Made by a program: the position numbers and the translations under genes. A stretch of 64,000 bases of DNA from Amoebophrya sp. A120 (Eukaryota > Protista > Dinoflagellata). This document shows, one piece after another, positions 1-61,434 of this stretch (position 1 is its first letter; every line of letters starts with the position of its first letter). The stretch spans positions 331,091 to 395,090 of the forward strand of contig CAJINV010000003.1 of NCBI GenBank assembly GCA_905178155.1. The letters run 5' to 3'. The notes under the pieces were generated by a model. It saw only the letters and a list, made by a program, of their open reading frames with translations, did no database searches and had not been told where the DNA came from.

Positions 1-3000
1 CCGGGCCGTGGCGGAACCCAAGCAGCCCGAGGCGGACTGGTTCATCGTGGGGGCGGGGAACGACAACGAGAAGCCCATCGACGAGGACGAGTTGCTCGCG
101 GAGCTCCGCTATCCTGTGCAAAGGTATCGTACTCGTAGTCACTGCAGTCATGCATTACAAATCTTTTCCCTAAGGCAAATCCGCATTGCAAATTTGATTT
201 CTCAATCTGAGGAAATTTGTAATGCATTTATACGAGTGCGATACTTCTGGTTCTGCAGTTCATATCCACGCCGAAACCGGGAATCCGGACTACCAGCTGG
301 AAAAGGAACTGCGCCCCATCGCGAACAACAACGACCTGATTGCCTGGCTGGTGCGGTCCATTCTGTCGCACCGCGCCAACGTGAACATCATGAACCTGCG
401 GGGCGACACGCCCGTGGTAACGGCGATCCGCAACGGCCACAACTGCGAGGTGGTGAAACTGCTTCTGGACTACAAGGCGCACGTGCAGTATCGCAAGCGC
501 CCGCTCATCGAAACCGAGCCGGACGAGGAACTACCTCCCGAAGAGGAAGAAACCGATAACAACAAACCGCCGGACGACGCCGAGGACAAAGACCGGCGGA
601 AGGTTCTAGACGACGAGCAGTACCTGTCGGCCCTGACGATCGCGGTGAAGTGCCGCCGGTCACCGGAAACGCTGCTGACGATTCTGATGCAAAAGAAGGT
701 GGACTGCAACGTGGTGGATTGTGACGACATATCCTGTGCAAAAGTATCGTACTCGTATTGCAATCATGCATATACAAATCTTTAACTTTATCTTAAGGTA
801 AATCCGCATTACAAATTTTATCTCTCATGCTGAGGACATCGACATTTGTAATGCTTTTATACGAGTACGATACTTTTGCAATGCATACGACATCAAGCAG
901 AAATCGCTTCTGCACTACGCGGTCCGCCAGCGTGACATCGCCTTGACGGCAATTTTACCCTGTGCAAAAGTATCGTATTCGTATAAATGCAAGTCTTGCA
1001 TTACAAATATTTTTCTTAACGCAAATCAGCATGACAAATTTCATTTCTCATGCTGAGGAAATTTGTAATGCATTTATACGAGTGCGATACTTTTGCACTG
1101 CATAAATTTTGCTGCAGTCCAAGCGGACGGAACAGCTGGATTGCAACATCCCGGACTTCCTCGGGTGGACGCCGATCTACGAAGCCATCGACTTGAAGGA
1201 CGAGGCCATGGTGGAGCTGCTCGCGGACTCGCAGCTGCAGATCCGGCAATTCAACGATTTGGGGCCAAAACTGTGGAAAACCGTGAGCGGGTGGCCGACG
1301 GCAGTGCGGAAGCCCACGATCAAGGACCCGAAAACCGGACGGAAGGTGCTGCGCGACCCGACGTATGCATTGCAAAAGAATCGCACTCGTATAAATGCAT
1401 TAAAGATTATTTCCTCAGCATGAAAAAAATTTGTATATGCGGACATACTTCAAGTTTGTAATGCATGATTGCAATACGAGCGCGATACTTTTGCACAGGA
1501 TACGACGCGGGTTAGGGTCGACGTGCTGGACAAGCAGGGGGTTTCGCCGCTGTGCCACGCCATTTTGAAACGGTGGGTCGAGGGGGTCAAGTGCCTCTTG
1601 AAATTTTGGCCCTCGATCGCGTTCTCGACGGGGTTGCCGCTTCGCGTCGCGTGCCGGCTGACGGACGTGGTGACGCGGGGGGACAGGGCCCGCCTGGAGA
1701 TCGTGGACCATCTGCGGATGATTGGGTCCGAGCTATTCCCCTCCGTGGTCGAGCAGGGGCACATATGCATCGCAAATATGTAGTCTGGGTCTGGAAAGTT
1801 GGAACTTGTCATGCTAAAAAGTCTGGATCCGTTGCAAAAAATATATGTGTTGCGTGATTTTTCCCCAGAAAAGTTGTCAGCGTTTGACGGAGTAGTTGGA
1901 GGGAGTTTCTCATGTTCATGTAGGATATAGGCATGGTTGCACTAGAGATCTTACACAATCAATCTGTCACGCTAGAAGGTCCTGCATTCCAGAATCCAGA
2001 CCTCATTGGTCATGGAAAACCCGCGTGACAAGTTTTGCAATATTGTTCCAGACCCAGACAACATATTTGCATTTGATAGCACACCCTGGCGCACGACGCG
2101 GAGCTGATGCGGCTGATCCAGAAGCACGAGGAGGCCGAGAAGCTGAAGCGGCAGCGGGCCGGAATGGATCCGAAGGCTCTGGAGCGGCAGCAAAAGAAGA
2201 AACGCAAGGAACTGGGCCTCCGCGACGACGAGGAGCTCCCCGGCGAGAACGACAACTTTGAGGACCCGGTGTCCTACTACGTATGCGAAGAAAAAAAAAT
2301 ATGTGAGTGTACTTAAATCCGTGATGCAAAACACACAACATAGTTACCGCTGTCATGCTGGCCAGCCATCAACTCCTGTTTTCGTATGTGTTTTCCTTTT
2401 CACGTACAGGCTGCGCATGACAGGTTTTCTCTGTCATGCAGTGACAGGCTTTCTCTGTCATGCAGAGCAAATTTATCATGCTGTCACTCGCCAAGACACC
2501 TACACTCACGCAGTTTTTTTCTTGGATACTACGTGCGCAACTACTACAATGACCCGGGCTCCGACGAAAATTCCGCGGTGTATGCCGCCATGCAAAACGA
2601 CGCCAAACTGCTGGAAGTTCTCTCCAAGTACCGACCGCCACCCGGCGTGGCCTCGCCGGACTACCCGAATCGTGCGCCCACGTCGGACCATCTGACGGCC
2701 GCGCTCTGCGTGCCCAACATCAACCAAGATATGCGAAGAAGACAGTGTTTTACAGTTTTCACATAGTGTGCTGTTCTTGCAGGAGACCAGGCAAGAAGAT
2801 AGATACGTGAAATAGAGGCCTGTCATCTTGCTGGATAGACTCGGGACGAGCCTGGTTTGTTCATACGCGTTGATAGTTGATTTCCCTCACGATGTCTGCA
2901 TTCTTGCGTGTTTTCTCTGTCATGAAGACGAGGAGCACGTTCTTTGTGTTGCTGAGGTTAATACGACAAGGGCAACAAGTGTGTAAAAACAGTTTTTTCT

Positions 3001-4004
3001 GGCCGCAATAGAGGAGTGCGCGCGTATCCTTGTGGAACACAAGGCGGATCCGAACGGGCAAATGTACGTGCACGACGCGATCGCCGCTGCCATCCTGGAA
3101 AACATTCGCGGCAAGCCGAAGAGGGAGGCTTTTCTGAAGGGCCTGGGGAAGTACGAGCTGACGGACCGGCGGGAATTCGAAGACACGATCTTCGCGGTTA
3201 CGCACTCCGACGCGGTCACGCTGCACACGACCCAGATTGGGCTGGGGCGCGCAACCGAGGAAACCGAGGCGCGGTGGGATCCCGCGGTCGCGACGGAGAT
3301 GATCCGCAACCCGCGGTTCAATTTGCACCAGCAAAAAACGGCCGCGAATGTGCTGTCCGTTCCGAGCAGTCGCGGCCGTAACGCTTTGGCGCAGCAGCAG
3401 GAGAAGAGCCAGTTGGTGCGCGGGTTGCCGCCGCACGTGGAGATGCCCCGGGAACCGCCGGCGAAAGAGCGGGAAACGAGTCCGTTGCTGAAAGCAGCAG
3501 ATCAGGAAGACATCATCAGCGAGGACTTTTTGCGCGACCAGGTGTCACATCTGCGGGAGCGGCGAACGCCCGCCATGATTGCCTGTACCACGGGCAAGCC
3601 AGATGTGTTGGCGCTGCTGGACGCCCGCGGAGCCGATATTGAGGCCATGGAATCAACCTCTGGTTGGTCCACGCACATCTACGCCGCACGTGCAAACCAC
3701 CTGCAGAAGGTGGCCCTTGCAAGTCTAAGAAATGCCTGATACTTCAACTTACTTTATTTGTATCTATTACTTTGCTGTGAACCTGAACTTGAAGGGGTAC
3801 GCTGGAGAAGCTCCTTCGCCAAAGAATCTAGGTGGCGCGCATCTTCGCGGAATCGACCGTCTTCACACGAAGGTCTTGCCAGGGTGGGTGTTTTTGGGAG
3901 GTGCTGCAGCACCAGTGGTGACCCGTGTTCGCCAAGATACAACCTGGTGCATGTCCGAAAATTACTTTACTACGTTTGATCATCATGAAAAAATGTATGA
4001 ATAG
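1..4004 (+). CDS. Ankyrin-repeat protein (5'-partial, split by 7 introners; 3' end uncertain, 3709-4004)
   Basis: Removing each element plus one 5-bp TSD joins one frame with ankyrin motifs: NLRGDTPVVTAIRNGHNCEVVKLLLDYKA, DIKQKSLLHYAVRQRD, DFLGWTPIYEAI, DKQGVSPLCHAI, RRTPAMIACTTGKPDVLALLDARGADIE. Confidence 0.8.
110..264. mobile_element. Introner, family A
   Basis: TATCCTGTGCAAAGGTATCGTACTCGTA...TACGAGTGCGATACTT...GCAGTTCATA; TSD TCCGC/TCCAC. Confidence 0.85.
730..887. mobile_element. Introner, family A
   Basis: TATCCTGTGCAAAAGTATCGTACTCGTA...TACGAGTACGATACTTTTGCAATGCATA; perfect TSD CGACA; removal gives DCDDIKQKSLLHYAV. Confidence 0.92.
956..1104. mobile_element. Introner, family A
   Basis: TACCCTGTGCAAAAGTATCG...CGATACTTTTGCACTGCATA; TSD AATTT. 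Confidence 0.9.
1364..1502. mobile_element. Introner, family A (inverted orientation)
   Basis: TATGCATTGCAAAAGAATCGCACTCGTA...GATACTTTTGCACAGGATA; TSD CGACG. Confidence 0.9.
1764..2078. mobile_element. Introner, family B
   Basis: TATGCATCGCAAATATG..TCTGGGTCTGGAA...TTCCAGACCCAGACA..ATATTTGCATTTGATA; TSD GCACA. Confidence 0.9.
2282..2528. mobile_element. Introner, family C
   Basis: TATGCGAAGAAAAAAAAATATGTGAGTGTA...TACACTCACGCAGTTTTTTTCTTGGATA; TSD CTACG; removal gives VSYYVRNYY. Confidence 0.85.
2730..3010. mobile_element. Introner, family C-like, degenerate
   Basis: TATGCGAAGAAGACAGTGTTTTACA...TGTAAAAACAGTTTTTTCTGGCCGCAATA; decayed TSD CAAGA/GAGGA; the 5-bp offset still restores the frame (NINQECARILVEH). 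Confidence 0.7.
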
Positions 4005-4100
4005 AACGATCGAAGGATCTTGAAGATCAGCTGAGGGTTTCGAAGAAGACGCATGTAACCGATCTTCATCGTTTTTTCTTGCTCTGAGCAAGCCAGTGAA

Positions 4101-5952
4101 ATGCGGCGCATTGTTCCACCTCGGTTGCTCCATTCGGGTGGCCGACCCTCATGCGTCGAAACGGGTCGTTCTTCCCTGATATCCGGCAGCGACAGCTGCT
4201 GCTCTTGCACGAAAAGGGAACTTTTTTTCCCTGCTCTGCGTTGCGATTTGAAGACGGGAGGTGATGGAGGCACGTCCAGCTCTTCGTCGAGCAGCAAGGC
4301 CTTCATCTCTTGGCGAAGGAGAATGAGCAGTGCCGTGACGTCGACCCCATCCGCAGACGAACTGCTTCGAGGAGGTGGAGCACCAGCCGGAACTACTTCT
4401 ACTGGACGCACGACAGGACGGACGAGCGAGCTGCAGCACCAGTGGACCACCCGAAACGCGCTCCCGCTTCCGAGCATCGGCGGGACTAGTAGTATCAGTG
4501 CTACTACAGTCCTGCCAACCGGGACGAGGTTTTCGCGAACAAGCGGCAAGAACCAGCCACATGAAGTTCTGCAGCGGCAGTCGTTCTGGGAATTGCGGTC
4601 GGCCTTTCTGGACGAGCTTTTTCGCCAGCAATTCAAGTACCAGTTGAAGCCCCTCGGGATACTGCCCATCTGGGCCCTGCAGCGCACCGTTCCAAGAAAT
4701 GAGTACCGGTTCATGATGGTCGCCACCTTCCCGCTCGTTGCGCTCACCGGAGCTGCGGTGGCTATGCACCTCTACTACACGTCGTCGACCACATCGACCG
4801 GCACCTCCGCGGAAGAGGACGAGGGAACAAGTACAGAAAAAGAGAATTATCCTGCCGGAGCAGCAGTTACACTTACTGCACAGCACCAAGACGTCGGGAC
4901 CACGCGGGTTTTCCAGGTAAACCCGGGCGTACTTTGCAATTGGGCCCTGATGTACGCGTGGATGCTGTTGATCGGAAGGTCGGCAATACACTACGGGCTC
5001 CAGCTCGGGGAATTTGCTGTGCCAAACGTGAGCAGCTGGGGGGGAAACCTGTTCCTGTCCCGCCTGCTGCCGCCGATCGGCTTCTTCCTGCTCGGAACAG
5101 CTCTTCTAACCATGTGCGAAAGCAACGACCACTGGCGCGACGCGAATCAACTCACTCTGCTGGCGTACATTTTCATTTTCTTTCATTTTATACTGCAGGG
5201 TTGGGATTCTGAATGTGATGCAAATTTGAGTTGTAGAAGAACATCTCAACTACAAGCAATTTTGAATTTGTTCATTGGATCAAAAAAAGCTCAAAAAAAC
5301 AGGTTCATGGTGCAATTCTGGTTGTATGACTTCTGGAATTTTCATCACGGCGGACTGGCACCGCAGTATTGGGGTCCCCTGTGCATGGCGCAGTCTATTG
5401 CGTCCATGCTGTGTCTGCAAACGATCGGCTACCTCATGCGGCAGTACAGCGTGGCGACGGCGGAAGCAGGGGAGTTTCGCATTTTCCCCAAGGAGGAAGA
5501 AATCGCAAGAACCGCCACGGTACCAAATGCAAATATGTCCGGGTCTGGAAACTTGTGATGCTAAAATGTGGATGATGGAAACAGTTGCGAATGCAACACA
5601 GCATGACAACTTTTCGAGACGCCTTTTCATAGGCAATCCGCATGAGAAACTGCGGTTTTGCATGTACAAAAGAGGCTGCGACTTGTTTTGTTGGTTATGC
5701 AATACATCAGATTTCCTAGGTATGCAAAGCTAGCATTACAAGTCCCACTCTTCCAGACCAAGACATATTTGCACTGGATAAACGGCAGCAGCCGGGGAGC
5801 AAGAGCAAGCAGCCAGGGGAACCACGATGGGAAAAGCCGCGTCAGGGCGTGGAGCAATAATCGATGACATTAACGCTCACATCGATTCGTGGCTTGGGAT
5901 CTCAGCCTCGAACACGCCGGGGCAAGAGCCTCCTTACAAAGTTGGAACATAA
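4101..5952 (+). CDS. Multi-pass membrane protein, unknown function (start codon uncertain)
   Basis: 485-aa ORF with several hydrophobic segments; continues in frame after the 5521-5780 introner (ATAAAGEQEQ...KVGT*) to TAA at 5950-5952. Confidence 0.6.
5521..5780. mobile_element. Introner, family B
   Basis: TACCAAATGCAAATATGTCCGGGTCTGGAA...TTCCAGACCAAGACATATTTGCACTGGATA; TSD CACGG/AACGG. Confidence 0.88.
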
Positions 5953-6528
5953 ATAAAACGTCCTACCATTGGATTGGAACACTATAGCATAGCTGAGCAT
6001 GGGGTTTGGCGTGTCGGAACTTTAAGAGTGCAGCCGAGTATCCTCGTCACGATCATGATTGAAGCAAAGGTGATGTACAGATCGCGCAATATCTTATCTA
6101 CAGATGAGAAAAGCAGACATGGATTGTGCGCGAGTCCTGCTTGTAGCACAGTTGATGTTCTTCGATTTCGTGACCAGTACCAAACCCAAACGGACAATCG
6201 TGGCATTTAGTACTAGTTGGTCATTTTCTACGAGGGACCCCGAGGGAGTGAAAAAGCGAAATTGATGTAATTGAAGAGAGCCTGAGAGTTTGTTAGAGTA
6301 TAGCGGATGCCCACCAGATTGTTGGTTCCGAGCATGCTAATGCTATTGGGTCCAAGCATGCTAATGCTCTCTTGATGGATTCGCGTTTTTGTGTGAATGA
6401 TTTCGCAACAAGTTTTCATTAGTGTAGAACTAGAACAACTCAAGGCATATAGAAGTAGATATTGATTCTGATTTCGTAGGCTTCCCGTCGGTGTCGGTCG
6501 ACGGACAGTCGGCAGAAACACGTCGCAA

Positions 6529-7317: not shown

Positions 7318-7381
7318 GGAAATCTTACGGTTACGGGCGAAAGGAGATGAGGGGCAGAACAAAGCTGATTATAGATGCTTT

Positions 7382-7409
7382 ATCATCATCATAATCATCA
7401 TCATCATCA
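7382..7409. repeat. (ATC)n microsatellite
   Basis: atcatcatcataatcatcatcatcatca just downstream of the 6529-7317 ORF. Confidence 0.7.
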
Positions 7410-9618: not shown

Positions 9619-12600
9619 ATGCCCTTGGTAAACCTGGATGATCTGTTTCCGCCCAGCAGCGTGGAGTCTTCGGGCTCGGACGAAAAACTGGAGCACGTAG
9701 TTTTCTTGGGCGAGAGTAGGCAGAAAGTCACCGTGGAGGCCAGGGAAGAGGGCCTGACCGAAGAGCTGTTGAAGAAGGTATCTAAAGTGACGGGCGTGCC
9801 CGTTCGGTTTCTGCGGCTCACCGCGTTCACTGCTCCTGGGTACGGCGATGACACAGACGAACAGACCACCTGGAAACTTCTGCCGCTGGACACCCGTTAC
9901 AGCCAAACGAAGCAATATGCATCTTCGGATACGGATAAAGGAAATACTAGTACAACTGGTGATGAGGTGGATGGAGATGGAACAGCAAGAACATCCGGGC
10001 CGCGAGGTAGAAAACAACTCAAGTTTCACTTGACGCAAGTTTTGAAGAAGACGGACTGGGTGAGCGTTTTGACAGAAACGCAGCAACTTCTGGTGGCAGA
10101 CGGGACGCTGGCGAACCTGCCAGCCGATGAAGAGATTTCATCTGGCGGTGACGAGGAACAAGACGAGGGGTACTATTCAAGCAGCAGCTCCGGGGGGACA
10201 TCGTCATCAAGTGTCGTGTCCGATGACCCAGAGACCGCTGCGGCAAAGCAGGAGGACGCAGTATCAGAATGAAAAATGCCCCCACCCCCGAACTTGAAAG
10301 CATTTGTATTGCAAACCTTTCCAAATGAAACATTCGCCCTCTTGCACCTATCAGCATCACAGGTTTCCAATCGTGAATAGCGAAAATTTGTATTGCAAAA
10401 GACCCCAGCAAGAGCGGCGCTTGTCATGCAAGCGATGCGATAAACGCCTAGACTCTGCATCAGAAAGATTCATACTCCTTTCATGCATGACAAAAAGGTT
10501 TCATTTGGAAACTTCGCATCACAAATTTTTGCAATTTGAGGGGTGGGGGGCACTTTTCACTGTAATACGCAGAGTGGAGCTACATCGCGTCACTGTGGTT
10601 TCTATCAAATGTAAAAATGTCTGGGTCTGGAAGATTCCGATATTTGTCATGCAGTTTCTCCAAGCTCCACCAAGTCTGGAATGCAGGTCCTAGCATCACA
10701 GGATCTGCAGCCCCTTTGTGATGCCTGTTCTGCATGAGAAATGCCCCCTCAGCATGGCCAGAAATGAGCGCCTTTTATTGCAAGTCACGCAACACAGATT
10801 TTTGTATGATGCGCAACATGCATCACAAGTTGCATCCTTCCAGACTCAGACATTTTTGCATTTGATAGTTTCCCGAAACTGAGAAGGGCGATGTCGCGCA
10901 GGTCTTAGCCGCCATGGGTCGAGATGAAAAGAGTGCGAGCAGAACAAGGAACGACTCTACTTCTATGAAAGGTCGTACGATGAACACCAGAAGTGCTCGT
11001 GCCGGGAGCCGCGGTGCCACGGCAACTGAAGATAGAAGTGATTTTCCGCACCAGAGAATGAGGAGCAACCCTAGAGAGGAAGCCGCGCGGAGAAAAAAAG
11101 AGGAGCTCACAGTGACCTCGGTCAACGCGCCGGACATGAATGGATGGACGCTGATGGGACTTGCTTGTGCCCGGGGCCTGCCAAAATTGCTGACGTACGT
11201 GCTAGAAACCCTGGCCAGCGTCGAGCTGGTAAATCTGAGTCTTCGCGTGGAGGAAACCTGTAGTTTTTTGCGTAGTAGTTCGTCCATTTTTGCAGATGGG
11301 GATGCAATTGAAGAAGAAGAAGTGGAACAAGAACGGGAGAAAGGCTTCTTGAAATCACCCGCACAAGAAAGACCTCGGACGTCAAATCTCAAACGGAATC
11401 AAGACACGCCCGAAATGAAAATCAGACAGCGTTGGCGAAACCTTCCACCGCTTTTAGCCGCTATTCGCTATAACCCGTCGGACGCCTCCTCCGCGGAGGT
11501 GGTAGCAATCCTGCTGGATCAGGGTTTCGATGTGAACCCGAACGTGCGCGAGGGAGTCCGGTCGGACGGCTACACACCCCTACTGCTCGCGATCAAGAAG
11601 GCAAAATGGCAAACCGCAGCCGTGCTCTTGCAGAACGAGCGCATCGACGTGAACTGCATTTTGGAACAGGAAGTACCAGCTGCACGGACAGCAGCTGGAA
11701 CTACTGTTGAAAATAAAGGCCGCGAAGAAGGAGCAGTAGAGCCTTCAACACTGGTGGAGGGATCTTCTTTACGTTCGCAGGAAGCTGCGCTCGTCGGAGG
11801 CGATTTAGTAGACCAAGATGTTGTAAAGAAAGCGGAGATCATTCTTGTGCCAAAGATCATGAAGAAAAATACGAAGATTCGCACGAGATGGCCGTTGGGA
11901 TATTTTTCCAAGCGGTGGCGCGAGCTGCTGAAGCCTGAGGCGGAGGGGGAGCGGCAATTTTTGGCAAAGCTGGTGGCGCACCCGCTGATTTCGCCGGATC
12001 TTGTGCCGTCGGCCAAGAGCAAGGAGGACAAGAACAAGAAAACTCGAAGATCGAAATCCCCCCCACCACTGGACGGGGAGAAGATTTTTGAGCAGCCGAA
12101 GCCGAAGCGCATCCCCACGTGGTGTAGTTCGGTGATGGAGGCTCCCCCGCATGGGCAAAACGCTCTCATCTCCGCCTGTCGCTCGGGCAATGTGGTATTC
12201 GTGGAGATTTTTCTCACCCACTGCCTGCCAGAGAAGGTGTATCCCAAGAAAAAAGTGTATACAGTTTTTTTACACGACATCTGTATGCAACTTCAGCAAC
12301 ACAATAGACTTGCTCTGCATTTACAGATGAGAAATACAACTTGCAATGCGTCGATTCATCGTCCGAAGGGGAAACACGTATCAAACGAGGCTCGCATGCC
12401 TTTGCGGCATGAGAGAGGTTGTCTGTCATGCGCGTTCTGCAAGAACACATTGTATGACTGTAACAGTAACACTTTTTTCATTGCACAAATTGACGCGCGT
12501 GATCAACCGGCTCGACGACTTATCCTGTACAAAAGTATCGTACTCGTAGTGCAATCATGCATTACAAATTTTCTTGTTAAGTCAAATCCGCATATACAAA

Positions 12601-13374
12601 TTTTGTTTCTCATGCTAAGGAAATTTGTCATGCATTTATACGAGTGCGATACTTTTGCAATGCATACGACTACGCACGCTCTGCGGTCTATGAAGCAGCG
12701 ATTTTTTTGTCCCGGGACGCCACGGACACTGTGCGAGATATGGGATTCTCAAACGTTACATTCTCAACTGTTAGATGATTTGTCATGCAAAATTACCATA
12801 AGCCGCCGCGCCAGGGTCAGACGACCAAGGTTCTTACTTCGCGTGACAGATTCTGAAAGGGCGGCTAGGCAGCATCTAAACCCGTTCCCAATTTGTGATG
12901 CGAGAGTTGCGAGCTTGGGCTTGCCGATTACGATTTCACCGTTGCCGTTCTTGCGTCACATCAAATTGATGTATAACAGTTGAGAATGTAACGTTTGAGA
13001 ACGCCATGCGGGACTCGAAGAAGGTGGCGGCGGACATGGTGGAACTGCTTCTCCGTGTTGACAACATCGACGCGGGGCTACCCGACCTGGAAGGCTACCA
13101 ACCCCTGCAGCGGGCAGAGCAGCGGGGGTACGAGAAAGTGAAGCGCTTGCTGATTCGGGAGTACTACGAGAAGCACGGCCTGAAGTTCGAGCTCACGCGA
13201 GAGCCGCAGTACGAGATTAACTTTTTCCGGCTCCGCATCGGGGAGCAGCCGTGGCGGGGAGATCCGCCGTTCGGTGTCACGGGGAAGGAAATTTGGCACG
13301 ACTGGAAGAGAACAAGTCCGAGGTTTGGAAAGAAAGTAATCGTGACCGAGACCACTGCGACATTCTTCGAATGA
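9619..13374 (+). CDS. Ankyrin-repeat protein (5 introners, 3 micro-exons)
   Basis: ORFs 9619, 10914 and 13006 join via micro-exons AEWSYIASLWFP, TRVINRLDD and YARSAVYEAAIFLSRDATDTVRD. Ankyrin motifs: DMNGWTLMGLACARG, DGYTPLLLAIKK, GQNALISACRSG, DLEGYQPLQRAEQRG. Confidence 0.8.
10262..10567. mobile_element. Introner, family D
   Basis: TATCAGAATGAAAAATGCCCCCACCCCCGAA...TTGAGGGGTGGGGGGCACTTTTCACTGTAATA; TSD CGCAG. Confidence 0.88.
10603..10867. mobile_element. Introner, family B
   Basis: TATCAAATGTAAAAATGTCTGGGTCTGGAAG...CTTCCAGACTCAGACATTTTTGCATTTGATA; TSD GTTTC. Confidence 0.92.
12240..12487. mobile_element. Introner, family C-like, degenerate
   Basis: TATCCCAAGAAAAAAGTGTATACAG...CTGTAACAGTAACACTTTTTTCATTGCACA; decayed TSD AGGTG/AATTG; frame restored. 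Confidence 0.65.
12521..12666. mobile_element. Introner, family A
   Basis: TATCCTGTACAAAAGTATCGTACTCGTA...CGAGTGCGATACTTTTGCAATGCATA; TSD CGACT. Confidence 0.92.
12739..13008. mobile_element. Introner, family E (inverted relative to the 26369 and 41694 copies)
   Basis: TATGGGATTCTCAAACGTTACATTCTCAACTG...CAGTTGAGAATGTAACGTTTGAGAACGCCATG; TSD CGAGA/CGGGA. Confidence 0.88.
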
Positions 13375-37142: not shown

Positions 37143-40100
37143 ATGGCGAAGGCTTCCGTTGCGCCCTCGGACATGGCCAACATGGTGGATGTGCAGCAAT
37201 ACGCCAACCCCGCCAACAAGACTGCCCCCTCCTCGATGATGGAAGACCCTTTGACGGATTACAAGTTCAATAATGGGGAATTTTCCAATTTCGGATCCAC
37301 CCAGGGCGGAACAGCAGGCATGGGAGCAGGCTCTGCCGGCGGGGGCGCAGCAGCTGCGGCCAACGGGGGCGGCTTCATCGGTTTCCTGGCCGGAATGTCG
37401 GGGAAGATGATCGTGATCGCGGTCTTTGGCATCGGCGCTGCCGTCGGCGGCATCGGCGCGATCGTGGCGTACGTGGTTGCCACCGGCGCGGCGGACAACT
37501 CGGGCGCAAATTCGTTTCCCGCGGGCGAAGGCGTCGCGCTGCACACCGGAATCACCATGGACCAGGTTGCGGGCCACAACTTCAAGTCCTCGTGCTGGAT
37601 CGCGGTACACGGCAAGGTGCTGGACGTCACGGAGTGGCGCAAGGAACACCCGGGCGGCAAAGACGCGTTCACCTGCGGGGAGGACAACACGCAGAAATTC
37701 CAAAACCAGCACGGCGGGGTGGAGTCGCTGGAGCGCCGGATCGCGCAGCAATCGCAGTACGTGAAGGATTTAGGAAAAGTCGCGACACTGAAAACAGGTT
37801 CAGGTTCTACGTCGAGCTCCACGTCCTCTTCCTCTAGCAGCGGAAGCAAAAAAATCGAGTTCGATTTCTCGAACGTGCAAAAGCAGCCGCACCCGGGCAG
37901 CGGCGCCGAGTGGAAGACCATGGTTTACATCGAACTGAAGGGCGGCGTGGACGGTGCGGCCATGTTTGTGAACGTAAACAACCCGGAGGAAGTGAACCTC
38001 TGGTGCGGCAAGCGCCCAACCTTGTCCGGTGAAAATTACTGCACCTGCCTGGCGCCCAGTTCTACCGCGGCGGCCCAGGACTGCACCAGCTGGCAGCTGC
38101 GCCGGGGGCCAACCGGAAATGCGGACGACCGATACGTGAGCGACATGGCCGGCACGGCGGGGCAGCTGGCGATGACGGACGTTTTGGGGGGCGGGTCCAA
38201 GGGGTGGATGCAACTGTGGAACGAGAACAAGATGTCAATCGTCGCGGGCGTGGGCCGGTACGACCACGGCCGCTCGCACTTCGAAGTCAAGGACGCCGCA
38301 GCAAAGGGCGTGTCCGTAGCAAAGGAGGCGGAAACCACGCACGGGTGGTTGGCCAAGAGCATCTTTGCGTACAACAATCTGTACACGCATCCGCCGGATT
38401 CCGCGAAAGCCAAAGACCCCGCATTGCCCGACGGGATCTCGTTGGCAAATGCCGCCGCCGGTCCGAACGCGCTGGAGGTGTCGGACGACTCCATCTCCCA
38501 CACGACGTTCCAGCACATCTCCGGCGTCAAGTCGGTCGACGGGGTGGTCGCGTCTTCCAAGTTCGATTTCGTGAACCCCTTTACCGCGGCAAAAATGATG
38601 GCCGGGTCCGGTTCGTCTCTGAGAAAAAGAACCTTGGAAGGAGCGGCTGAACAAGTCGCAAAAAATTCTCTGGTCGTGCCAGAAGAGGACTCAGCTTTAC
38701 TCAGTTCGACTTCCGAGGACATTATTATTCCACCTGGAGGCAACAACTACGTGGATCATGCCGAGCAACCGCAGTGCGGCGCCCGGTACGAGCACGCGAT
38801 CGGAGGTGGATCATGGGGGGTGAAGAACAGTAATATTGGCGATCATTACAATGATTTGCTCGCAACTGAGCATGCAAACACGGTGCAGTGCATCGAGCTC
38901 CGGCAGATGACGGACGAGGAGGAGTGGAGCACAACCAAGAGCAACCTCGGTCTGGAGGAGCTGCTCGCGAAGGAGGCCTCGATCTTCCAGGGTGTGGGCG
39001 TGATGCAGGAAAAACTGGCGCAGTACCGAGACAATCTGTCCACCCTCTGCCCCAACTTCCCGGCGACCGCCGAGTGGGCCGACAGCTCCTCGGACGCGCA
39101 GATCGGCATGCAGCTGCGCGCGGTGGCCATTTTGCTGGTGAACGGCGTGCGGCCGAAAGTGTTCCAGCTGCAGCAAACGAAGTACGACACGCACTCCAAC
39201 CAGGGCGCGCGCCTGCAGACGCTGCTGTCCGACCTGAAGACCGGCGTTTACACGTTTGTGCGCGCGGCCGAGGCGTGCGGCTTTGCCAACGACGTGCTTG
39301 TGACAACGTTTTCCGAGTTCGGGCGCCGGCTGGAGGAGAACAGCCGGATATGCATTGCAAATACGGCTGGGTCTGGAATAAAAGTGACACTTGTAATGCA
39401 TATCTTGCATTCCTGGAGAATCTGTGTTGCATGAGCAGCAAAAGAGCAGCTTCCTTTGTTATGCAAAAACGCAATTTGTCATGCGTGCTAGGCATCACAT
39501 TCAGAACGAAGCAGGCGTCTCGAAAACTTGTCATGCTTGGCTGCCATTGCAAGGGCTTCAATCGTTTGCAATTTAGCATCACAGGTTTCCAGACCCAGAC
39601 ATATTTGCAGTTGATACCGGAAGGGCACCGACCACGGGTGGAGCAGCTACTTCGCGGTGTTCGGCACGGTATCAATTGTAAAAGTGTCTGGGTCTGGAAG
39701 AATGCAACTTGTGATGCTGCGTCTGCATTATCGAAAAATCTGTATTGCATGAACAGCAAAAGAGGTATGATTTTGGCCACGGCGAGAGGGCATTTCTCAT
39801 GCGGTATAGGCATCAGAAAGCCCTCACAAGATCTGTGATGCTAGGGCATGCATCGCAGACATCAGGAGTCATGCAAAATGTGCATGACAAACCTTGCATC
39901 CTTCCAGACCCAGACATTTTTGCATTTGATACACGGGGCTGCAGCGCAAGGTGTTCGGGTACGACCCCGTGAAGCAGAGCGCGGAGTTGGGCAGCATCAT
40001 CCCGTATCAACTGTAAAAGTGTCTGGGTCTGGAAGAATGCAAACTTCTCATGCATATTTTCCATGCCCCATGAGGTTTGGAAAGCAGGGCCTAGCATGGC

Positions 40101-43100
40101 AGGTTATGCGACGTCCCTACTATGCCTATCCTGCATGGCAAACTTGTTCAAAACTGCACAGCTTTTGGTAGTCACGCAACACAAATTTTTGTACGATCCA
40201 GACTTAGCATGACAAGTTCGCATCCTCCCAGACCCAGACATATTTACAATGCATATCCCGCGCCACAGCGACGCGTACGTGGAATCGAAGGGGACCAAGG
40301 GCGACCTGCCGCTGATCACCTCCGTGCAGACTTGGAACGCGTGCCTGCTGAACGCACTGGCCCTGCCCGCGCTCCCGCGGCTGGGGCGCTGTCCGCTGCG
40401 GCTGCGCAACGGCTTGGCGCAGATCCCCTACTACGAGGAGCAGCAATACTACAAGCAAAGCAGCGCTAGTAGTGCAACCACCGCCAGTTCCAGCACTGCG
40501 CAAACCACAACGACCGCGTCAAGTGCCACCTCGACCACCGGGAGCACGGCGCACTTGACGCAAGCCCTGACCACGACGGAATTGTTGCACTTCTCGCGGC
40601 GGATCGGGTTCGCGCCCCAGGCACTGAACTTCCACACGGATATCGCGACCGCGCGGACCAATGCGGTGCAGCAACCGACCGCGCGCAACCCGGACGGCTC
40701 GGCCAACACCACGGTTACCCTGCAGCAGGCGATTTCCCGGGTGCTCGCGCCCGCGAACACCGCCACCCCAGCGGCGGACACGCAGCTTTTTTTGAAATGG
40801 AAGATCCGCAAGTTCAACGCCCTCGCGCTGTGGAGCAAGGAACGGCAGATGCGTCGGAATAACTGGGAGGAGATCCTGCAGCTGCCCTACCCGGCGCAAG
40901 ATTCCTTTCACAACCGCGTGCAGCGCTGGGACCTGGCGCAGTTCTTCGACATGAGCTCTTTGTACATCAACCCCAACAACCCGCACGACGGACGCGTCGA
41001 CCTGCACGCGAACTACGTTGGGAAGGGGCACTTGCTGCTGCAGCACCTGCAGACAAAGGCGACCATCTTCTACATGGCGCTCCCGGTGAGCAAGGCGACG
41101 GGCAAGGCCAAAGACAATTGGCTGGACGACGACGGGAAGGTGAAGGACGAAACCAAAGTGGCCTGGTACCAAACGGTAATGCAGGTGCCGGACGTGAAGG
41201 AGATCACGGCGCTCACCGTGCAGATATCAAATGCAAAAATGTCTGGGTCTGGAAGATTTTGAGATTTGTCATGCTTGTCTGGCATGACCAAAAAGTTTGT
41301 GATGCGTGTCCAAGAGGAGACCCTTTTGCCTGTCATGCCAAAACGCACTTTGTCATGGGGAACACGCAACACAAGGAAGCGCAGGCATTTTTCATGCTTG
41401 CCTGTGCATTACAGAGCATTCACTATTCCCAACGCAGCATTACAAGTTTCCAGACCCAGACATTTTTGCAGTTGATAGCAGAAGGTGATCGACGACCGGA
41501 AGTGCAGCACCGGCGGCACCGCGACGGACCCCTGCGACCCCGAGTGCGACTTGACCAAGTTTCTGGACATCTACCACAACAATTCCACGGCGATGTTCAA
41601 GCCCGAGCACTACCAAATCTGGAAGGGCCCGGACGGCACGAAGCAGACCGCGCCCTGGTTCAAGCTGAAGACCTGTGCGAAGCCGGACAACGATATGGCG
41701 TTCTCAAATGTTACATTCTCAACTGTTACATGAATCTGTAATGCAAGAACGGCGAAAGTGAAAGGGGGAAGATTGCGCCCTTTGCATTACAGATTTGGCA
41801 CAGATTTAGACGCTGTTCAGCTCTTCGGATATTTGTCATGCGAAGTAGCTCAATCGTGGCGATCTTGGTGGTAAATTTGCATGACAAATCATGTAACAGT
41901 TGAGAATGTAACAGTTGAGGACGCCATAGACGATCGCAAGACCTTCGAGCACGAGCGCGCGAATCAGCTGAAACTGAAGATTATCAAATGTAAAAATGTC
42001 TGGGTCTGGAAGAATGCATGTTTGTCATGCTTGTCTGGCATGACTCTTAAATCTGTCACGCACGTTACCCAAGAGCTCCATTTTTCTGTGATGCAGAAGC
42101 GCAGTTTGTCATGCAGAATAGGCAACACCTAGAAGCTCAGAAACTTGTCATGCTGAGCCAGCACCTGTGGCCTCATCATGAGACGCCACCGAGCATCACA
42201 AGTTTCCAGACCCAGACATTTTTTCATTTGATAAAGATCGCCCAGTACCTGCAGGACCGCTACTTCGCGGACTTCACATCGACCTCCCTGGGGCAAATCC
42301 GGGCGCGCATGACCTGGTTCTTCCTGAACTTTTACGCGACGCCCAAAACCGCGGTGAACGACGACTTGCTGATGTACAAGCAGTACGAGACGCTGTGGCG
42401 GGGCAGTCTGGGGAACTACCGGACGCTCGCGTTACAAATGTTCAACGACAAGGCGCTGCGGAAGTCGCTGGACCAATTGGAAGAGGTCGAGTGCGGCACC
42501 GCGCCGATCGAGAACTTCGCCCGGGAGTGGTTTGAGCGGTTCACGTATAAAATGCAAATATGTCTGGGTCTGGAAGAGTCCGAACTTGTGATGCTGCATT
42601 TGGATTCCAAAAAAATCTGTATTGCATGACCAGCAAAGGGAATGCAATTTTGGCTACGCGGAGAGACCATTTGTCATGCGACATAGGCATCGCGAAGGCC
42701 TCAAAAAGTCTGTGATGCTAGGGCATGCATCACAGACATCATGGCCCATGCAAAACGTGCATGACAAGTCTCAGACAGACGTGCACGGACATGCAAAACG
42801 TGCATGGCCCATGCAAAACGTGCATGAAGGATTCGTGGCCGGGAGATGATGGTGATGGCACTTCGGTGTCCGCCTGACCTACCTTCCCTGCGTGACAGCC
42901 ATCTGCGGCCGTTTGCAAAGGGGGAGGCAAAGTGTGCCGCACTTCTGTTTAGCATGACAAGTCTCAGAATGTTCCAGACCCAGACACTTTTGCATTTGAT
43001 ATCACGGTGGGCCTGCGCGCGCACAACGAGGGTGACGTGAAACGGCTCAGCAAAGGGCTCATGAACTGCAAGGACGACTCGGAGACGGCGAATCTCGACT

Positions 43101-46004: not shown

Positions 46005-50180
<4,176 letters not shown>

Positions 50181-52440: not shown

Positions 52441-52659
52441 AACTTCTGGGACTGGAAAGAAGCAAATGAAGAAATGTGGTCTCAACGAAACGGAAAAGTT
52501 GGCGGTTTAGAAGAAGTGCCGGGATGCAAACAAGCCCGTGAAAGAGAGAAAATCCAGAAAAAGAAATCAAATTGAATAAGTGGCTGCGGCGATCTGTGCC
52601 ACCGATGTTGACCGCTGTTTTTCTCGAACGAATCGCGGCCGGTCGGGCGTGCGTCGATG

Positions 52660-53209
52660 CTTTCGTCGCTGATGTTCTTGTGGTAGGTAGACCTGTGTTG
52701 TTGATTTGCTGGTAGCTGTTGTCTTCCAGGTTGATTTTACATGATTTACTGTGCTCGATAGGTATATTGAGTGCATTTTTTTTTGTTTTCGATGTCTTTA
52801 TAAAAAACTACTTACGGTTCGGAATCGGGTTACTGTTCGAGTTCGAACTGGAAGGAAGTAGTGTCGGTACTTTTGCAGCTGATCTAGCACGTACCGAGAG
52901 TAGATTCGTGTTGCGTAGAGAGACCGGCGAGCAGCATATTCATCAAGGGCTTCCGGGGGTAGTAAGGCCCAATTAAAGGCCCGATACCAATTGGAGCCCG
53001 TGTGGCCCAATTAAAGGCCCAATTTATTATCATGGGAGCCACTCGGCTCTCCTGTTCGTGCTGGACGAGCTGGACCTCGTCCGCTTTGGCTGCTCTACTC
53101 TTCTACTTCAGTGTTTTATTTTCCGAAACTCGGGCACTGGACGGGCATTTCTGTTGGGTGGGAGGAGTATCGTGGTCCGACTGCTGCGACACGGGTGGCG
53201 CGTTCGGGA
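52660..53209 (+). pseudogene. Truncated 5' duplicate of the methyltransferase gene, lacking the introners
   Basis: Aligns by eye to about 53860-55697 once the 54351 and 55521 elements are removed; the frame ends shortly after GGAFG. Confidence 0.75.
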
Positions 53210-54141: not shown

Positions 54142-57100
54142 ATGGGAGCTACTCGGCTCTCCTGCTCGTTTCTTGCAGGTCGTGTTGCTTCAGAGGTGGG
54201 GGGTTCTGGTGGAAATTTTTTGAAGAGCGCAACAGCAGCACGATATAATTCGGCCTGGACGAGCTGGACCTCCGCTTTGGCTGCTCTACTCTTCTACTTC
54301 AGCGTTTTATTTACCGAAACTCGGGCACTGGACGGGCATTTCTGTTGGGTTATTCAGGGAAAATTTGTCACCGTCACCGTTTTGGCATATTCATTTTCCG
54401 ACCCAAAAAAATTGATTTTTTCCTGATATCCCACACATGCCCATATTGATCAGTTGTTGCAAATGTGGCCCGCGAGGCATTACACTTCGAGCATGGTGGC
54501 CCGTGTAGTTGAACGCAATCCAGAAGCGCCCCGGAATGGCTTTGCCGTCGTACAGACCAAAGACGCGGCTCCAGAAGGTCCGTTGCGAGGAGGCTGGCTG
54601 CTGGCGCATAGGGGCTCGACCCTTGCTGGGGGGCCTTCTCCATGGTGCGGCTTGCGATGTTGGGTTGCTCCTGGGAATGTCGGGCCCTTGTCACTCCTTG
54701 ACGAAAGGCCTCCGGCAAAGGACCTCCAGAACCCAGAAAAAAGCAGCAAAATTTTAAGCAAATTTAACGACCACCTGGTGACAAATCCCAGAAATTTTAC
54801 ATTTTGCACGGTATGGTGGACGTTTCCGAGCCAGATTTGTTACTGGTGACAAATCAGCAAATTCTTGCATTTTGCAAGGTATGGTGGACGATTGCGCACG
54901 GACCAAAAATTCTTGCAGCTGCAAGAATTTTTGATCAGTGCGCAATCGTCCACCATACCGCGCAAAATGCAAAATTTCTGGCATTTGTCACCAGTTCCGA
55001 TTTTGGGCTCCCAGAGTCCACCATACCGTGCAAAATGCACGATTTTCGAGATTTGTCACCAGGTCGTCGGTTAATTTGCTCAAAAAATTGCCTTTTTTTC
55101 ACGGGTAGTGGAGGTCCTTTGCTGAAGGTCTTTCGTCAAGGAGTAAGATGTGCCCGAGATGCTAAGGGGCAACCCAGCAAGACCAGCCACAGTATTCCGA
55201 TCCTCCGCGGACGGAAATCTGGTTGCTCTAGTGTCAGTAGACAGCCTCCCAGCCAAGGACCTTCTGGAGCAGCGGCTTTGGCCTGTATAACGGCAGCGCC
55301 GTTCTGGGATATTTCGGGACTACCTTCAGCGAGCTAGGTCAGCGCGCTTGAAACGCAGTAGCTAGCTTGCCGCAGTTGCAACATGTGGCAGACACGGACA
55401 CGCATACAAAGCCAGCAGAAATTCAAATTTTTTTGCTCAAAAAATGAATATGCCAAAACGGTGACGGTGACAAATTTTCCCTGAATATGGGTGGGAGGAG
55501 TATCGTGGTCTGACTGCTGCTATCCTGTGCAAAAGTATCGTACTCGTAGTAATCGCATTTATGCATTACAAATCTTTTTCTAAACGCAAATCCGCATTAC
55601 AAACTTAATCTGTAATGCTGAGCCAATTTGTAATGCATTTATACGAATACGATACTTTTGCAGTTCATAGCTGCGACACGGGTGGCGCGTTCGGGAACGA
55701 AGCGTGTTGGACCGGGGAGTTCACGTTCGAGCGATGTTGCGACCGCCAGATGCAGGGTCTGGAGGACGAGTGGGGACCGAAGCTGCTGCAGAATCTGAAG
55801 ACGACGTTATCCTGAGTAAAAACGTACCCACACCAGAGTCAGGATGGGGATTTTGCAACACAAACCTAGGAGCTTTGTAAGTCACGCATGACAAGTTGCA
55901 CTATGCAGTGTAGTGCAGGTTAGCAAGTGCAGCCGCGTCACAGATTCATCTGCTCATCCTGTTCACAGCATCACAAATTTCAAAACACGATTGGAAATGG
56001 CTCTCATGGAGATGCGCATTACAAGTCTTCCTGTCTTTGCAAATCTGCATTACAACTCTGGTGTGGGTACGTTTTTACTCAGGATAGACGTCGCACGAGG
56101 AGATGGAGGAGAGCCTGCGGAAATCACTGACCGTGGTGGAGTATGCATTGCAAAAGTATCGTACTCGTACTAATTGCAGATATGCATGACAAATCTAGCT
56201 GTTAAGGTAAATCAGCATTACAAATTTAGGTTTGTAATGCTGAGCTAATTTGTATTGCGATTTATACTAGTGCGATACTTTTGCACAGGATATGGAGAAC
56301 CGCACCATGAGTGCGCACAGTAGCGCGCTCTTCCTGGTCTTGCTGCTGCGTCTGCAACAGCGATTCGCGGAGGCGGAAGAGCTGCAGCACCAAATCCCGC
56401 AACTGCAGCTGTCCGTGAATTCCGCCACCGGCGTGTGGGAAGGGAGCAGCAGCGTCGGGTACCACATGCACGACGTCGATTTGGTGCACACCGGTTTGAT
56501 ATCCTGTGCAAAAGCATCGTACTCGTATAAATGCATTACAAATTTGCTCGGCATGAGAAATAAAATTTGTAATGCGGATTTAGCTTCAGAAGAAAAATTT
56601 GTCATGCGTGATTGCAATTACTACGAGTACGGTGCTTTTGCATTGCATATTTGATGCCTTTACTGCAAAAATACAACGCCCGTTCCGTGCTGGACCTGGG
56701 CTGCGGTGTGGGCTACTACGTCCGCGACTTCCGGACCAAGTACAGGTCCGCCAGTCAGGCGCCATTGGACCTCGTGCTCGGCGTGGACGGCAACCCCGAT
56801 ACGGTGGAGATTACCGACGGGCGGTGCACCGTGGGCGACTTGTCGAAAAAGCTGGACCTCGGCTTTCGCTTTGACGTGGTGATGTCCCTGGAAGTGGCCG
56901 AACACATTCCCCCGGAGTACGAGCAGACGTTTGTAGCGAATTTGCTGCGACACAGCGGACACCTGCTGGTGTTGTCTTGGGGCAACCAGCCGGGGCACGG
57001 CCACGTCAACAACAAGGCATCGGGGGAAGTTCGAAGCGTCTTCACCGCACACGGCTTTCTTTTCGACGAGGAAGAGAGTCGCAGGCTTCGCACAGCCGCA

Positions 57101-57719: not shown

Positions 57720-57872
57720 CAAACACATAGCTGCTCCACCTCCTGTGTGATAATAGACACACAGCACGAACAAATTATGCCTCGTGTGACGACGTCTCAG
57801 ATCGAAGCGAGCTTGCGTGGCCTGGGACTGGCCCTGCCGTCTCCCGCCGCACCCGCCGCTAACTACATTCCT
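57720..57872 (+). pseudogene. Truncated 5' duplicate of the RidA gene, lacking the introner
   Basis: ATG at 57777, MPRVTTSQIEASLRGLGLALPSPAAPAANYIP, with a single CTGGG; stops at 57908. Confidence 0.75.
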
Positions 57873-57904
57873 TACTCACGGAACGCCGGGCCACTTCAGC
57901 TCGT

Positions 57905-59337: not shown

Positions 59338-59386
59338 GGCGTCGACTGTGGCCCGCCGCACCCGCCGCTAACTACATTCCGTTGAC

Positions 59387-59893: not shown

Positions 59894-59958
59894 ATAAAAC
59901 ATGACATAGCAGCTCTTCCTGTCCCTGTGTAATATTAGATACATAGCACAAACAAATT

Positions 59959-61434
59959 ATGCCGCGTGTGACGACGTCTCAGATCGAAGCGAGCTTGCGT
60001 GCCCTGGGTACTAAGTGGAAAAATGTCTGCAGCAAAAAAAAACAAAATTGGTAGTGCAGTTTGTGCCCTTCTCTTCTCGCCCGGACTGCAGCGCGCTGGC
60101 GAGCGCCGTGGACTCCATGCTGGGGAGCTTGGCCGTGGTGCTGTGCTCCATTTTTCCTGCGTCGGTGCTCAAAGCTCCCGCGCGAGCTTGAAGGTCCCCC
60201 AGTAGTCAGCCCAGGCCTTAGTCCTCATACTTCTCGTTCTGGAAAGTAGTTGCTTTTGTCATGCTCCTGTCCAGCATGCCGCGAACCTCAGCCAGGTACT
60301 TGGGCGTAAAGCCCCTCCCGCCAAAAGTGGCAATTTGTAATGCGGGTCTCGCATTACAAATGGCCTTTTCTTGTGACTCGTTCTGGGTCAGCTTTCCGGG
60401 CCGGGTCACAAATCTGAGGCCCTGCATCAGCAGAATGCCGTGCTGTAAGGGTTCAGATTTGTGATGCAAAACGTGGCTCCGCCAAAAACGTCTGCACCTC
60501 GTCACTGAGGTCCCCAAGTGGAGGTGCAGAGCCTCTTCTTCAGCAAATTCAACTCATTCTCAAACAAGACAGGCACTAGGTAAATCGTCTGGAATCAGGA
60601 GGGAGTGTGGGAACTTGAAGAACTACAACTGCGAACCCGGGTGGACGACGTCCACCGATACCGACGCACCGAGTCCCTCGGTGGCTGAGCTGTCTCCTCT
60701 GCTTCGTCGGCCGAGGCCTTGCCGGAATACCTGGCCTACCCATTTCCTTGATTTCGTTTCATTGTGAAAAAAAATAAACACCCAAGAAGGTGCCCAAAAA
60801 TGTAGGATGCAAAAATTTTGATTTTTTTAGCTGCAGACATTTTTCAGTTTAGTACTGGGACTGGCCCTGCCGTCTCCCGCCGCACCCGCCGCTAACTACA
60901 TTCCGTTCACGAAAGTTGGCCCTCTGGTGTTTGTGAGTGGCCAGATCCCAAAGTTACCCGACGGAACCATGCACAAGGGGAAAGTTGGAGACTCGTACAC
61001 GGTGGAGAGAGCACAGGAAGCCGCACGGGTATGCGCCCTAAACATCGTAGCACAGATAAAGGAAGCCTGCAAAGATGGGGAATTGGCACAGGTAGACTTT
61101 TCATAGGATCACTACTTTTATCATCTGAAGGAAGCAGCGGCGGGCAACATCGCTGTTCTTAGATTGGTGATGATGAAGATGAAAGAGGAATCAAAGCAGC
61201 TACCTTCGCCTTTCCTGAAAAACTCAGGTGAAGAAAATAGTGAAGCTGGAAGGATTCGTGTCGTGCGGTGCGGAGTTTACCGAGCACCCAGAAGTGATCA
61301 ATGGGGCGAGCGACCTGCTTGTTGACCTATTTGGCCCAGATGTCGGACCGCACTCGCGATTCGCTGTAGGCTGTGCCAGTCTTCCGCGGGGTGTTCCCGT
61401 GGAGATCGGGGCCGTCGTCGAGCTCGATGGATAA
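59959..61434 (+). CDS. RidA/YjgF/YER057c/UK114-family protein
   Basis: PAAPAANYIPFTKVGPLVFVSGQIP...AARVCALNIVAQ...VKKIVKLEGFV...HPEVINGASDLLVDLFG...HSRFAVGCASLPRGVPVEI; element at 60009-60854 and GT-AG intron 61092-61227. Confidence 0.9.
60009..60854. mobile_element. 846-bp introner / MITE-like element with TAC...GTA ends
   Basis: TACTAAGTGGAAAAATGTCTGCAGC...GCTGCAGACATTTTTCAGTTTAGTA; TSD CTGGG; carries TGT(C/A/G)ATGC motifs. Confidence 0.88.

Follow-up and report, generated by a model that had tools for sequence, protein, structure and literature searches.

Introners of Amoebophrya sp. A120 with a uniform 5-bp duplication and a probable non-canonical donor

The window analysed here is a stretch of 64 000 nucleotides from the dinoflagellate Amoebophrya sp. 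A120 (contig CAJINV010000003.1, positions 331 091 to 395 090). It contains 34 inverted-repeat elements, spread from position 110 to 60854, that interrupt the exons of 10 plus-strand genes. The elements share one anatomy and a uniform 5-bp duplication at the insertion site; empty sites exist, the element and five further bases are missing from the RNA at eight sites, and the upstream copy of the duplication is the one kept at three RNA junctions. They are the introners already published for this strain (Farhat 2021, PMC7789003) and not a different system; new here are the uniform duplication rule, a motif found across the families and a polar splice rule. Our overall explanation, which we favour on balance, is that A120 introners are inserted, likely by one transposase lineage, and removed, likely by the spliceosome, from a donor reading N-U-A-Y.

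In the proposed mechanism, a single lineage of cut-and-paste transposases would likely have inserted the short elements into exons, leaving a 5-bp duplication. The host spliceosome would likely remove them, with the cut probably one base before TAT and the intron consequently beginning N-U-A-Y. The acceptor would be free of AG and lie four bases beyond the final ATA, a position predicted to depend on distance; in a hairpin formed end to end, donor and acceptor would come close to each other. One copy of the duplication would leave with the intron, so that the messenger RNA would be restored exactly and no splice signal would be needed in the target. That the spliceosome acts, rather than a separate structure-guided machine, we consider likely.

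Anatomy of the elements and their removal from transcripts

Scans for a TAY start, an RTA end, flanking 5-mers and inverted ends, together with a reading of the whole window, gave 34 elements, three of them added by eye. The first-pass annotation had listed 35 elements of about 10 families in 10 genes; the 10 genes stand, the count is 34, and BLAST comparison gives 12 groups (three with 10, 12 and 3 members, and nine single elements). The 35th candidate, 54388-55450, falls within an inverted repeat of 75 nt that belongs to element 54351 (elements are named by their first position) and is not counted.

The elements are 139 to 1137 nt long. Thirty-one start with TAT and three with TAC; 31 end with ATA, one with GTA, one with ACA (12240-12487) and one with ATG (12739-13008), so that the TAY and RTA ends noted earlier hold for 34 of 34 starts and 32 of 34 ends. 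At the 68 inverted ends, positions 1-3 are T, A and T in 67, 67 and 64 cases and positions 11-13 are A in 56-66, which matches the pattern of TAT, seven variable bases and an A-run of the A120 introners. Positions 9-15 are conserved equally at both ends; past position 16 no end sequence is common to the families. The scan returned 40 candidate pairs in the window, against 0-1 per local shuffle (12 shuffles). Elements have 44% G+C and exons 58%, and copies recur at unrelated gene positions (28188 and 41982 are 94% identical). All 34 lie in coding sequence, which by our own gene models makes up about 50% of the element-free window. The duplication is perfect around 27 of the 34, with one mismatch in four cases and two in three. 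Three of the elements are missing from two partial gene duplicates in the window, where each 5-mer is present once, as expected for a target duplication.

A search of metagenome contigs with the end pattern of family B gave 143 loci (552 kb; L numbers below); at least 76 of them belong to one assembly. They carry relatives of 31 of the 34 window elements, at up to 96% identity; they probably come from the same or a very close species and are not independent of the window. TAT was found at 201 of 206 ends (103 elements defined by internal anchors only), although the search pattern itself fixed TAT at one end of many family-B copies. Among 99 elements with both ends TAY, the perfect repeat measures five bases in 85, four in three and six in none. 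A de novo scan of the loci found 356 elements, including a few that are mis-bounded (e.g. L001 1359, L022 4425 and L004 8473), against none in a 104-kb shuffle. The family-B end pattern had no match in viral contigs. Longer duplications are rare: 8 and 7 bp at L057 3868-4147 and L136 76-330, in elements otherwise typical.

The sites of the 34 window elements suggested a preference for CNNNG targets, which is gone in the 273 elements whose orientation was assigned (see below; phase-matched p = 0.26-0.71), with the exception of G at position 4 (109 versus 86, p = 0.02 uncorrected). The sequence of the duplication is near the exon background, and this excess of G is weak. Eleven of the 33 gaps between window elements measure 33-73 nt, and 64 of 221 neighbour gaps in the loci 20-80 nt, only one being shorter than 20 nt; a 200-nt spacing period seen in the window is not evident in 272 gaps. 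This clustering, with element lengths near 150, 210, 260 and 320, recalls insertion into nucleosome linkers, or local hopping.

Removal of the element with five further bases keeps the reading frame in 34 of 34 cases, whereas retention adds stop codons in 34 of 34; all ten tested segments are open. The frame restoration previously described is thereby borne out, including at the motifs ENSR|KGTDHG and ERFT|VG of gene 7, whose homologues are colinear and gap-free across both splits. Because removal with two or eight further bases keeps the frame as well, the frame test alone fixes the length only modulo 3; it is the transcript contigs (eight sites) and the gap-free homologue alignment that give exactly five. 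Spliced in silico, gene 7 is identical to the protein P0001 (source name Amoebophrya sp. A120) at 1388 of 1388 residues. It was also correct that most elements cannot be written as GT-AG introns: one of the 34 can (25402), and among the 273 oriented elements 16 can be written as GT-AG and three as GC-AG, so that the ends are not those of major (U2) introns.

The RNA consisted of the assembled contigs of one sample (X3, the same as X5, labelled 'RNA?') and of raw runs X9 and X10, compared with window positions 1-14000. Thirteen elements lie in this stretch, eight of them covered and five, in gene 3, uncovered; the other 21 lie beyond it. At all eight covered sites, in genes 1 and 2, the element and five bases are absent from the contigs: seven joints are listed (skipping 160, 163, 154, 144, 320, 252 and 265 nt) and one of 286 nt follows from the coordinates of the contig pieces. 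Three GT..AG introns are likewise absent from these contigs, and depth is zero across the intergenic bins and most of gene 3; the contigs therefore behave as transcripts and are not DNA. Their listed exon pieces show zero differences from the window. The raw runs X9 and X10 gave no exon coverage in 1-14000, only element ends. More than 100 X9 reads join family-B ends (window 10603-10636 and 1783-1818) to other sequence; a related strain carrying the family in an abundant transcript may explain them. Window positions 7931-8800 hold a strongly covered transcript with two GT-AG introns and zero elements.

The annotation had itself named retention in transcripts, or splicing at distant cryptic GT-AG sites, as outcomes that would refute it; neither was seen at the eight covered junctions. 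That the genes are pseudogenes, or are spliced at distant cryptic GT-AG sites, could draw on gene 3, which has no transcript coverage. For genes 1 and 2 it is refuted by the eight covered junctions, each exactly the element plus five, and since intact frames are restored in all 10 genes and homologues are colinear, it is extremely improbable for the set as a whole.

The elements (no strand assigned) and the two partial duplicates are as follows.
110..264, family A (about 150 nt); ankyrin gene 1; duplication TCCGC/TCCAC; RNA joint 108->269, 160 nt
730..887, family A; gene 1; RNA joint skips 163
956..1104, family A, TAC start; gene 1; RNA joint skips 154
1364..1502, family A; gene 1; RNA joint skips 144
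1764..2078, family B (about 260 nt group); gene 1; RNA joint skips 320
2282..2528, single in window; gene 1; RNA joint skips 252
2730..3010, single; gene 1; duplication CAAGA/GAGGA; sole element without GCATNACA (see below); join 2727->3014, 286 nt, inferred from contig piece coordinates
5521..5780, family B, TAC start; gene 2; duplication CACGG/AACGG; RNA joint 5516->5782, 265 nt
10262..10567, single in window; ankyrin gene 3, outside RNA contig coverage; scan and frame test
10603..10867, family B; gene 3; scan and frame test
12240..12487, ending ACA; gene 3; duplication AGGTG/AATTG; frame test
12521..12666, family A; gene 3; scan and frame test
12739..13008, family D (TATGG ends), ending ATG; gene 3; frame test, BLAST grouping
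22629..22894, family B; TPR gene 4; scan and frame test
25402..25554, family A; gene 5; sole window element writable as GT-AG (register -1)
25713..25878, family A group; gene 5; scan, frame test, BLAST grouping
26109..26317, single in window; gene 5; scan and frame test
26369..26606, family D; gene 5; scan, frame test, BLAST grouping
28188..28439, family B; gene 6; opposite in orientation to its 94% identical relative 41982
28498..28753, family B; gene 6; scan and frame test
39349..39616, family B; gene 7; splits ENSR|KGTDHG; frame test and P0001/homologue alignment
39670..39931, family B; gene 7; frame test and P0001/homologue alignment
40005..40255, family B; gene 7; frame test and P0001/homologue alignment
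41225..41477, family B; gene 7; frame test and P0001/homologue alignment
41694..41928, family D; gene 7; duplication AACGA/GACGA; P0001 has N here, the upstream copy
41982..42233, family B; gene 7; frame test and P0001/homologue alignment
42546..43001, family B, 456 nt; gene 7; splits ERFT|VG
49827..50148, element; kinase gene 8; duplication GCCAT/GGCAC, differing at position 5 (would separate register -1 from 0); scan and frame test only
54351..55487, gene 9; long element of 1137 nt, folding back on itself; stop-free frames of up to 189 codons; frame test
55521..55669, family A; gene 9; scan and frame test
55808..56086, family E (279 nt); gene 9; scan and frame test
56142..56292, family A; gene 9; scan and frame test
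56500..56649, family A; gene 9; scan and frame test
60009..60854, gene 10; long element of 846 nt with TAC...GTA ends; stop-free frames of up to 111 codons; scan and frame test
53055..53205, plus strand, partial duplicate of gene 9 without elements 54351 and 55521; each 5-mer once (empty sites)
57725..57883, plus strand, partial duplicate of the gene 10 start without element 60009; 5-mer once (empty site)

Position and polarity of the cut

A perfect duplication hides the register, that is, the position of the donor relative to the first base of the element, and imperfect duplications were therefore used. At element 110, the joint 108->269 keeps the upstream copy through position 4, which leaves the donor at -1 or 0 only. 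At 2730 the upstream copy is kept through position 3, so that register -3 and beyond is excluded, and at 5521 it is kept at position 1; retention of this copy is thus common to all three informative RNA junctions, and the first two exclude the AN register. P0001 also keeps the upstream copy at element 41694. The ordinary introns of the window (three shown by RNA, the others from our own gene models) start with GTA in 14 of 14 cases and with GTAY in 11 of 14, and all end with CAG. With the donor at -1 the elements would have U at +2 and A at +3 as these host introns do; the RNA junctions fit -1 and 0 alike. A donor at -1, rather than at 0 or at a variable position, is the reading to which we give fair confidence.

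Transcript orientation was assigned by a codon model to 273 elements, 239 from the loci and 34 from the window, 10 others being too short and the remainder below threshold. On genes oriented by Pfam, its confident strand calls were right in 16 of 16 cases; of four further calls, all below threshold, one was wrong. Ten elements have a changed terminal base at the transcript 3' end (in L001, L013, L026, L039, L044, L061, L076, L111 and L120, and window element 12739) and none has one at the 5' end (p = 0.002). The second base is altered in three at the 3' end and in one (L025) at the 5' end, which makes 13 versus 1 for the two positions combined. The third base behaves in the opposite way: TAC is found only at the 5' end in seven elements and GTA only at the 3' end in one (p = 0.07). 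To a transposase the two ends are equivalent, and mutation with a strand bias would not change T3 and leave T1 intact; this polar damage therefore points to splicing, and its pattern fits an invariant U+2, a strong A+3 and a tolerated Y+4. The best-kept base at the 3' end is A at -7. Short, fixed branch-point distances occur in some protists and yeasts; that the conserved A seven bases before the acceptor is the branch point is conceivable and rather doubtful. The insertion phase is uneven in the 273 elements (83, 124 and 66; p = 6e-5), and at register -1 the phase in excess is phase 0, as for ordinary introns.

In Table S4 of PMC7789003 the nine top A120 sites all begin with NT, and the nine top A25 sites begin with TT where the repeats start with TTA; these starts read as U+2 and A+3 in both strains. 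A donor N-U-A-Y that agrees with positions +2 to +4 of host GTAY, combined with an acceptor that lacks AG and is placed by distance, appears to us moderately probable.

A non-spliceosomal or dedicated machine could instead read the terminal hairpin, as in euglenids, and make its cuts where the stem starts (register 0) and five bases beyond the element. The RNA agrees equally with register 0 and with -1; in 121 folds the far arm pairs with terminal bases 1-3 in 86% and with bases 9-16 in about 90%, and sense folds are slightly lower than antisense folds in 72 of 121 (p = 0.03). U1 was not found in A120 (PMC7789003), and Euglena uses a paired motif with fixed spacers (PMC12501133). A symmetric stem, however, gives no reason for decay of the 3' terminal base (10 elements) and not of its 5' partner (none); the seven TAC/ATA ends break the third pair, a wobble excess is absent overall, and the agreement of TAY with host GTAY and with A25 TTA would have arisen by chance. 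Such structure-guided excision is, in our judgement, improbable. Across families, the arms pair at 52-70% at positions 4-7 and at about 86-98% at positions 1-3 and 9-16, which describes a short terminal helix, a loop and a long helix.

Several points weigh against spliceosomal removal from a fixed N-U-A-Y donor. RNA evidence covers eight of the 34 elements and comes from assembled contigs of one sample, which are blind to minor isoforms. A single junction confines the donor to -1 or 0, and no junction tells these two apart. There is one counter-example, L025 5233-5477, which starts with TTT in a well-oriented gene, and G at +1 is not enriched (91 versus 86 expected). The tally of deviant ends is small and was put together by hand out of several scans, leaving aside the rows of weak orientation (L013 and L015 at the 3' end, L073 with TAA at the 5' end, L060 at both ends), and adding those at positions 1-2 gives 16 versus 2. 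In one deviant scan 18 of 19 pairings were dropped for weak pairing. Selection at the RNA level on arm pairing is absent overall (G-U 258 versus A-C 259), with opposite signs in two sub-ranges. The published NT starts may partly be an aligner's choice, since for fam2 of PMC12130899 the NT starts (6681 of 9716) and AN ends (6598), which are mirror registers, are equally common.

Mismatches between the two duplication copies also weigh on this side: 33 of 59 are synonymous, against 37-43% expected for a fixed register (p = 0.002-0.03), and both copies could sometimes be exonic. The codon-usage polarity of these mismatches is flat, and their GC-to-AT polarity does not separate the registers. The synonymous excess, the flat polarity test and the description in PMC7789003 of splice sites as variable relative to the hairpin would all suit a cut that falls anywhere in the duplication and varies by intron or molecule, harmlessly as the product is identical. 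The three informative junctions and the P0001 case nevertheless all keep the upstream copy, and polar end damage implies a positioned signal; we regard the absence of any fixed register as very unlikely.

A shared motif and the mobilisation of the families

The motif GCATNACA occurs 103 times in the window elements (10.9 per kb) and three times in the other 54 kb (0.055 per kb). It is carried by 33 of the 34 window elements, by 346 of the 356 elements of the loci and by all 13 groups with at least two members among 390 elements. In transcript orientation its distribution is mirror-symmetric, with 143 reverse and 4 forward copies in the first fifth of the element and 137 forward and 3 reverse in the last fifth. 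Because of this symmetry about the element, GCATNACA would suit a transposase DNA-binding site better than a splicing signal, by analogy with the subterminal repeats of hAT and CACTA elements.

The annotation had proposed that one transposase lineage and one splicing rule serve all families. The splicing rule is supported indirectly, by the uniform geometry and the polar end damage. For the transposase, the same ends, the same 5-bp duplication and the shared internal motif make a single lineage plausible, and one lineage with GCATNACA as its predicted binding site seems to us somewhat probable. It weighs against this that Pfam identified no transposase in 134 of the 163 long frames of the loci (552 kb), and PMC7789003 likewise reports none in A120. 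The long window elements have no frame of more than 189 codons, and a search for long autonomous copies through unpaired ends (30 ends) gave no far partner with a perfect duplication. Element 54351-55487 is a near-complete fold-back, 74% complementary over its length, with its centre near 54918 and one motif copy; it has no relative in the 143 loci.

The uniformity might also arise by filtering and not by descent: several unrelated transposases would be at work, and only insertions with TAY ends and a 5-bp duplication would be spliced and so survive in exons, which is compatible with the splicing model preferred here. All 34 window elements are exonic, so such a filter could act; PMC12130899 distributes A120 introners over several classes, one of which holds a Mutator-like family whose duplications measure 8-9 bp; and the ends of different families diverge past position 16. 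Filtering explains the 5' TA, but not why positions 9-15 are conserved to the same degree at the two ends or why all 13 groups carry an internal motif that is strand-symmetric, and it is in our view rather unlikely.

A likeness to IS3EU elements had been suggested, and it holds in part. TA..TA termini are common to both (IS3EU/GingerRoot; PMC10045372, PMC12730594), and the fungal IS3EU ends TAYGG..CCRTA are those of family D and of element 49827. Membership is not supported: the duplication is usually 6 bp there and 5 bp here (6 bp in 0 of 99). No transposase was seen in the 134 long frames of the loci that were compared.

A more far-reaching account is offered tentatively, as possible and somewhat doubtful. 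The spliceosome of A120 (and A25) would work without G+1, terminal AG and U1, reading U+2 and A+3 from the TAY end of the transposon and measuring the distance to the acceptor from an adenosine at the other end. One transposase lineage, with TAY ends, a 5-bp duplication and putative GCATNACA binding sites, perhaps a 5-bp relative of IS3EU/GingerRoot, would insert anywhere in exons without leaving a trace in the mRNA and would have made tens of thousands of introns. A fixed N-U-A-Y donor with an AG-free acceptor, if true, would show how far a spliceosome can relax; flat splice-site logos would then be aligner scatter within the 5-bp repeat, and A120 gene models could be placed by rule. GCATNACA is a handle for finding the missing transposase.

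Known introns and the genes of the window

The donor consensus of minor (U12) introns is RTATCCTT. In the elements, C occupies position 5 in 85 of 271 at either end, and C at position 4 weakly favours the 5' end (55 versus 36, p = 0.06). A minor-intron assignment was rejected on the position 5 count and on the reported absence of U11/U12 from A120 (PMC7789003).

PMC7789003 describes A120 introners of about 240 nt with TAT-starting inverted repeats, seven variable bases, an A-run, direct repeats of 3-5 nt and RNA-supported removal, and the legend of its Fig. S19 gives an example of a 5-bp duplication. The window elements have these ends, direct repeats, RNA removal and repeated copies, and P0001 protein identity indicates the same organism; the annotation had rightly noted non-canonical introners in Amoebophrya. 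In the passages covered, the paper reports the repeats as variable in length with an unknown border, rejects general mobilisation by a transposase, and proposes an alternative mechanism in view of the apparent loss of U1. Its main text contains neither the word 'subterminal' nor 'GCAT'. Neither a fixed N-U-A-Y donor nor the GCATNACA motif was found in print among the passages and searches covered. A strain with canonical introns has U1 (PMC12005148).

In Dataset S2 of Gozashti 2025 (PMC12130899), the 58 A120 rows are mostly 'TIR DNA, Unknown', with lengths near 150, 210, 260, 280 and 305-320 nt; fam38 is annotated '5-bp TSD, TA/TA Termini' with integrase-like homology. Its automated duplication lengths scatter from 2 to 6 and the parts covered draw no common rule, in contrast to the uniform 5 bp here.

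Euglenid nonconventional introns (PMC12501133) are alike in having paired ends, direct repeats, a short motif at fixed spacers from the cuts and no GT-AG. They differ in their CAG/CTG motif, spacers of 3 and 5-6 nt and a purine after the acceptor, compared with TAY/ATA, spacers of 0-1 and 4-5 nt and no exon-base preference here. The euglenid signature N3-CDG...CH'G-N5-6 with a following purine was rejected on end and flank composition. The introns of Fritillaria borealis (PMC11282704, PMC13326754) resemble the present ones in being derived from miniature inverted-repeat transposable elements and, on our reading, in removal by an adapted U2 spliceosome; they are mostly AG-AC or AG-AT and U1 is present, whereas here the first and last intron bases look free.

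By Pfam, genes 1 and 3 code for ankyrin repeats, gene 4 for TPR and gene 8 for a kinase domain; the exons of genes 2, 5 and 6 have no Pfam match. Gene 7 (37143-44095) is a fusion of cytochrome b5, PF07394 (DUF1501) and PF08811. Its close homologues are from other Amoebophrya and metagenome proteins and its distant ones are bacterial, a pattern suggestive of two bacterial genes that were transferred and became fused. The stretches 52698-53205 and 57725-57883 repeat the starts of genes 9 and 10 in truncated form, at 81-94% identity; they lack the elements, run into G+C-rich sequence and may be captured fragments or older duplications. All gene models in 1-61435 are on the plus strand, which fits the unidirectional clusters reported for Amoebophrya (PMC7789003).

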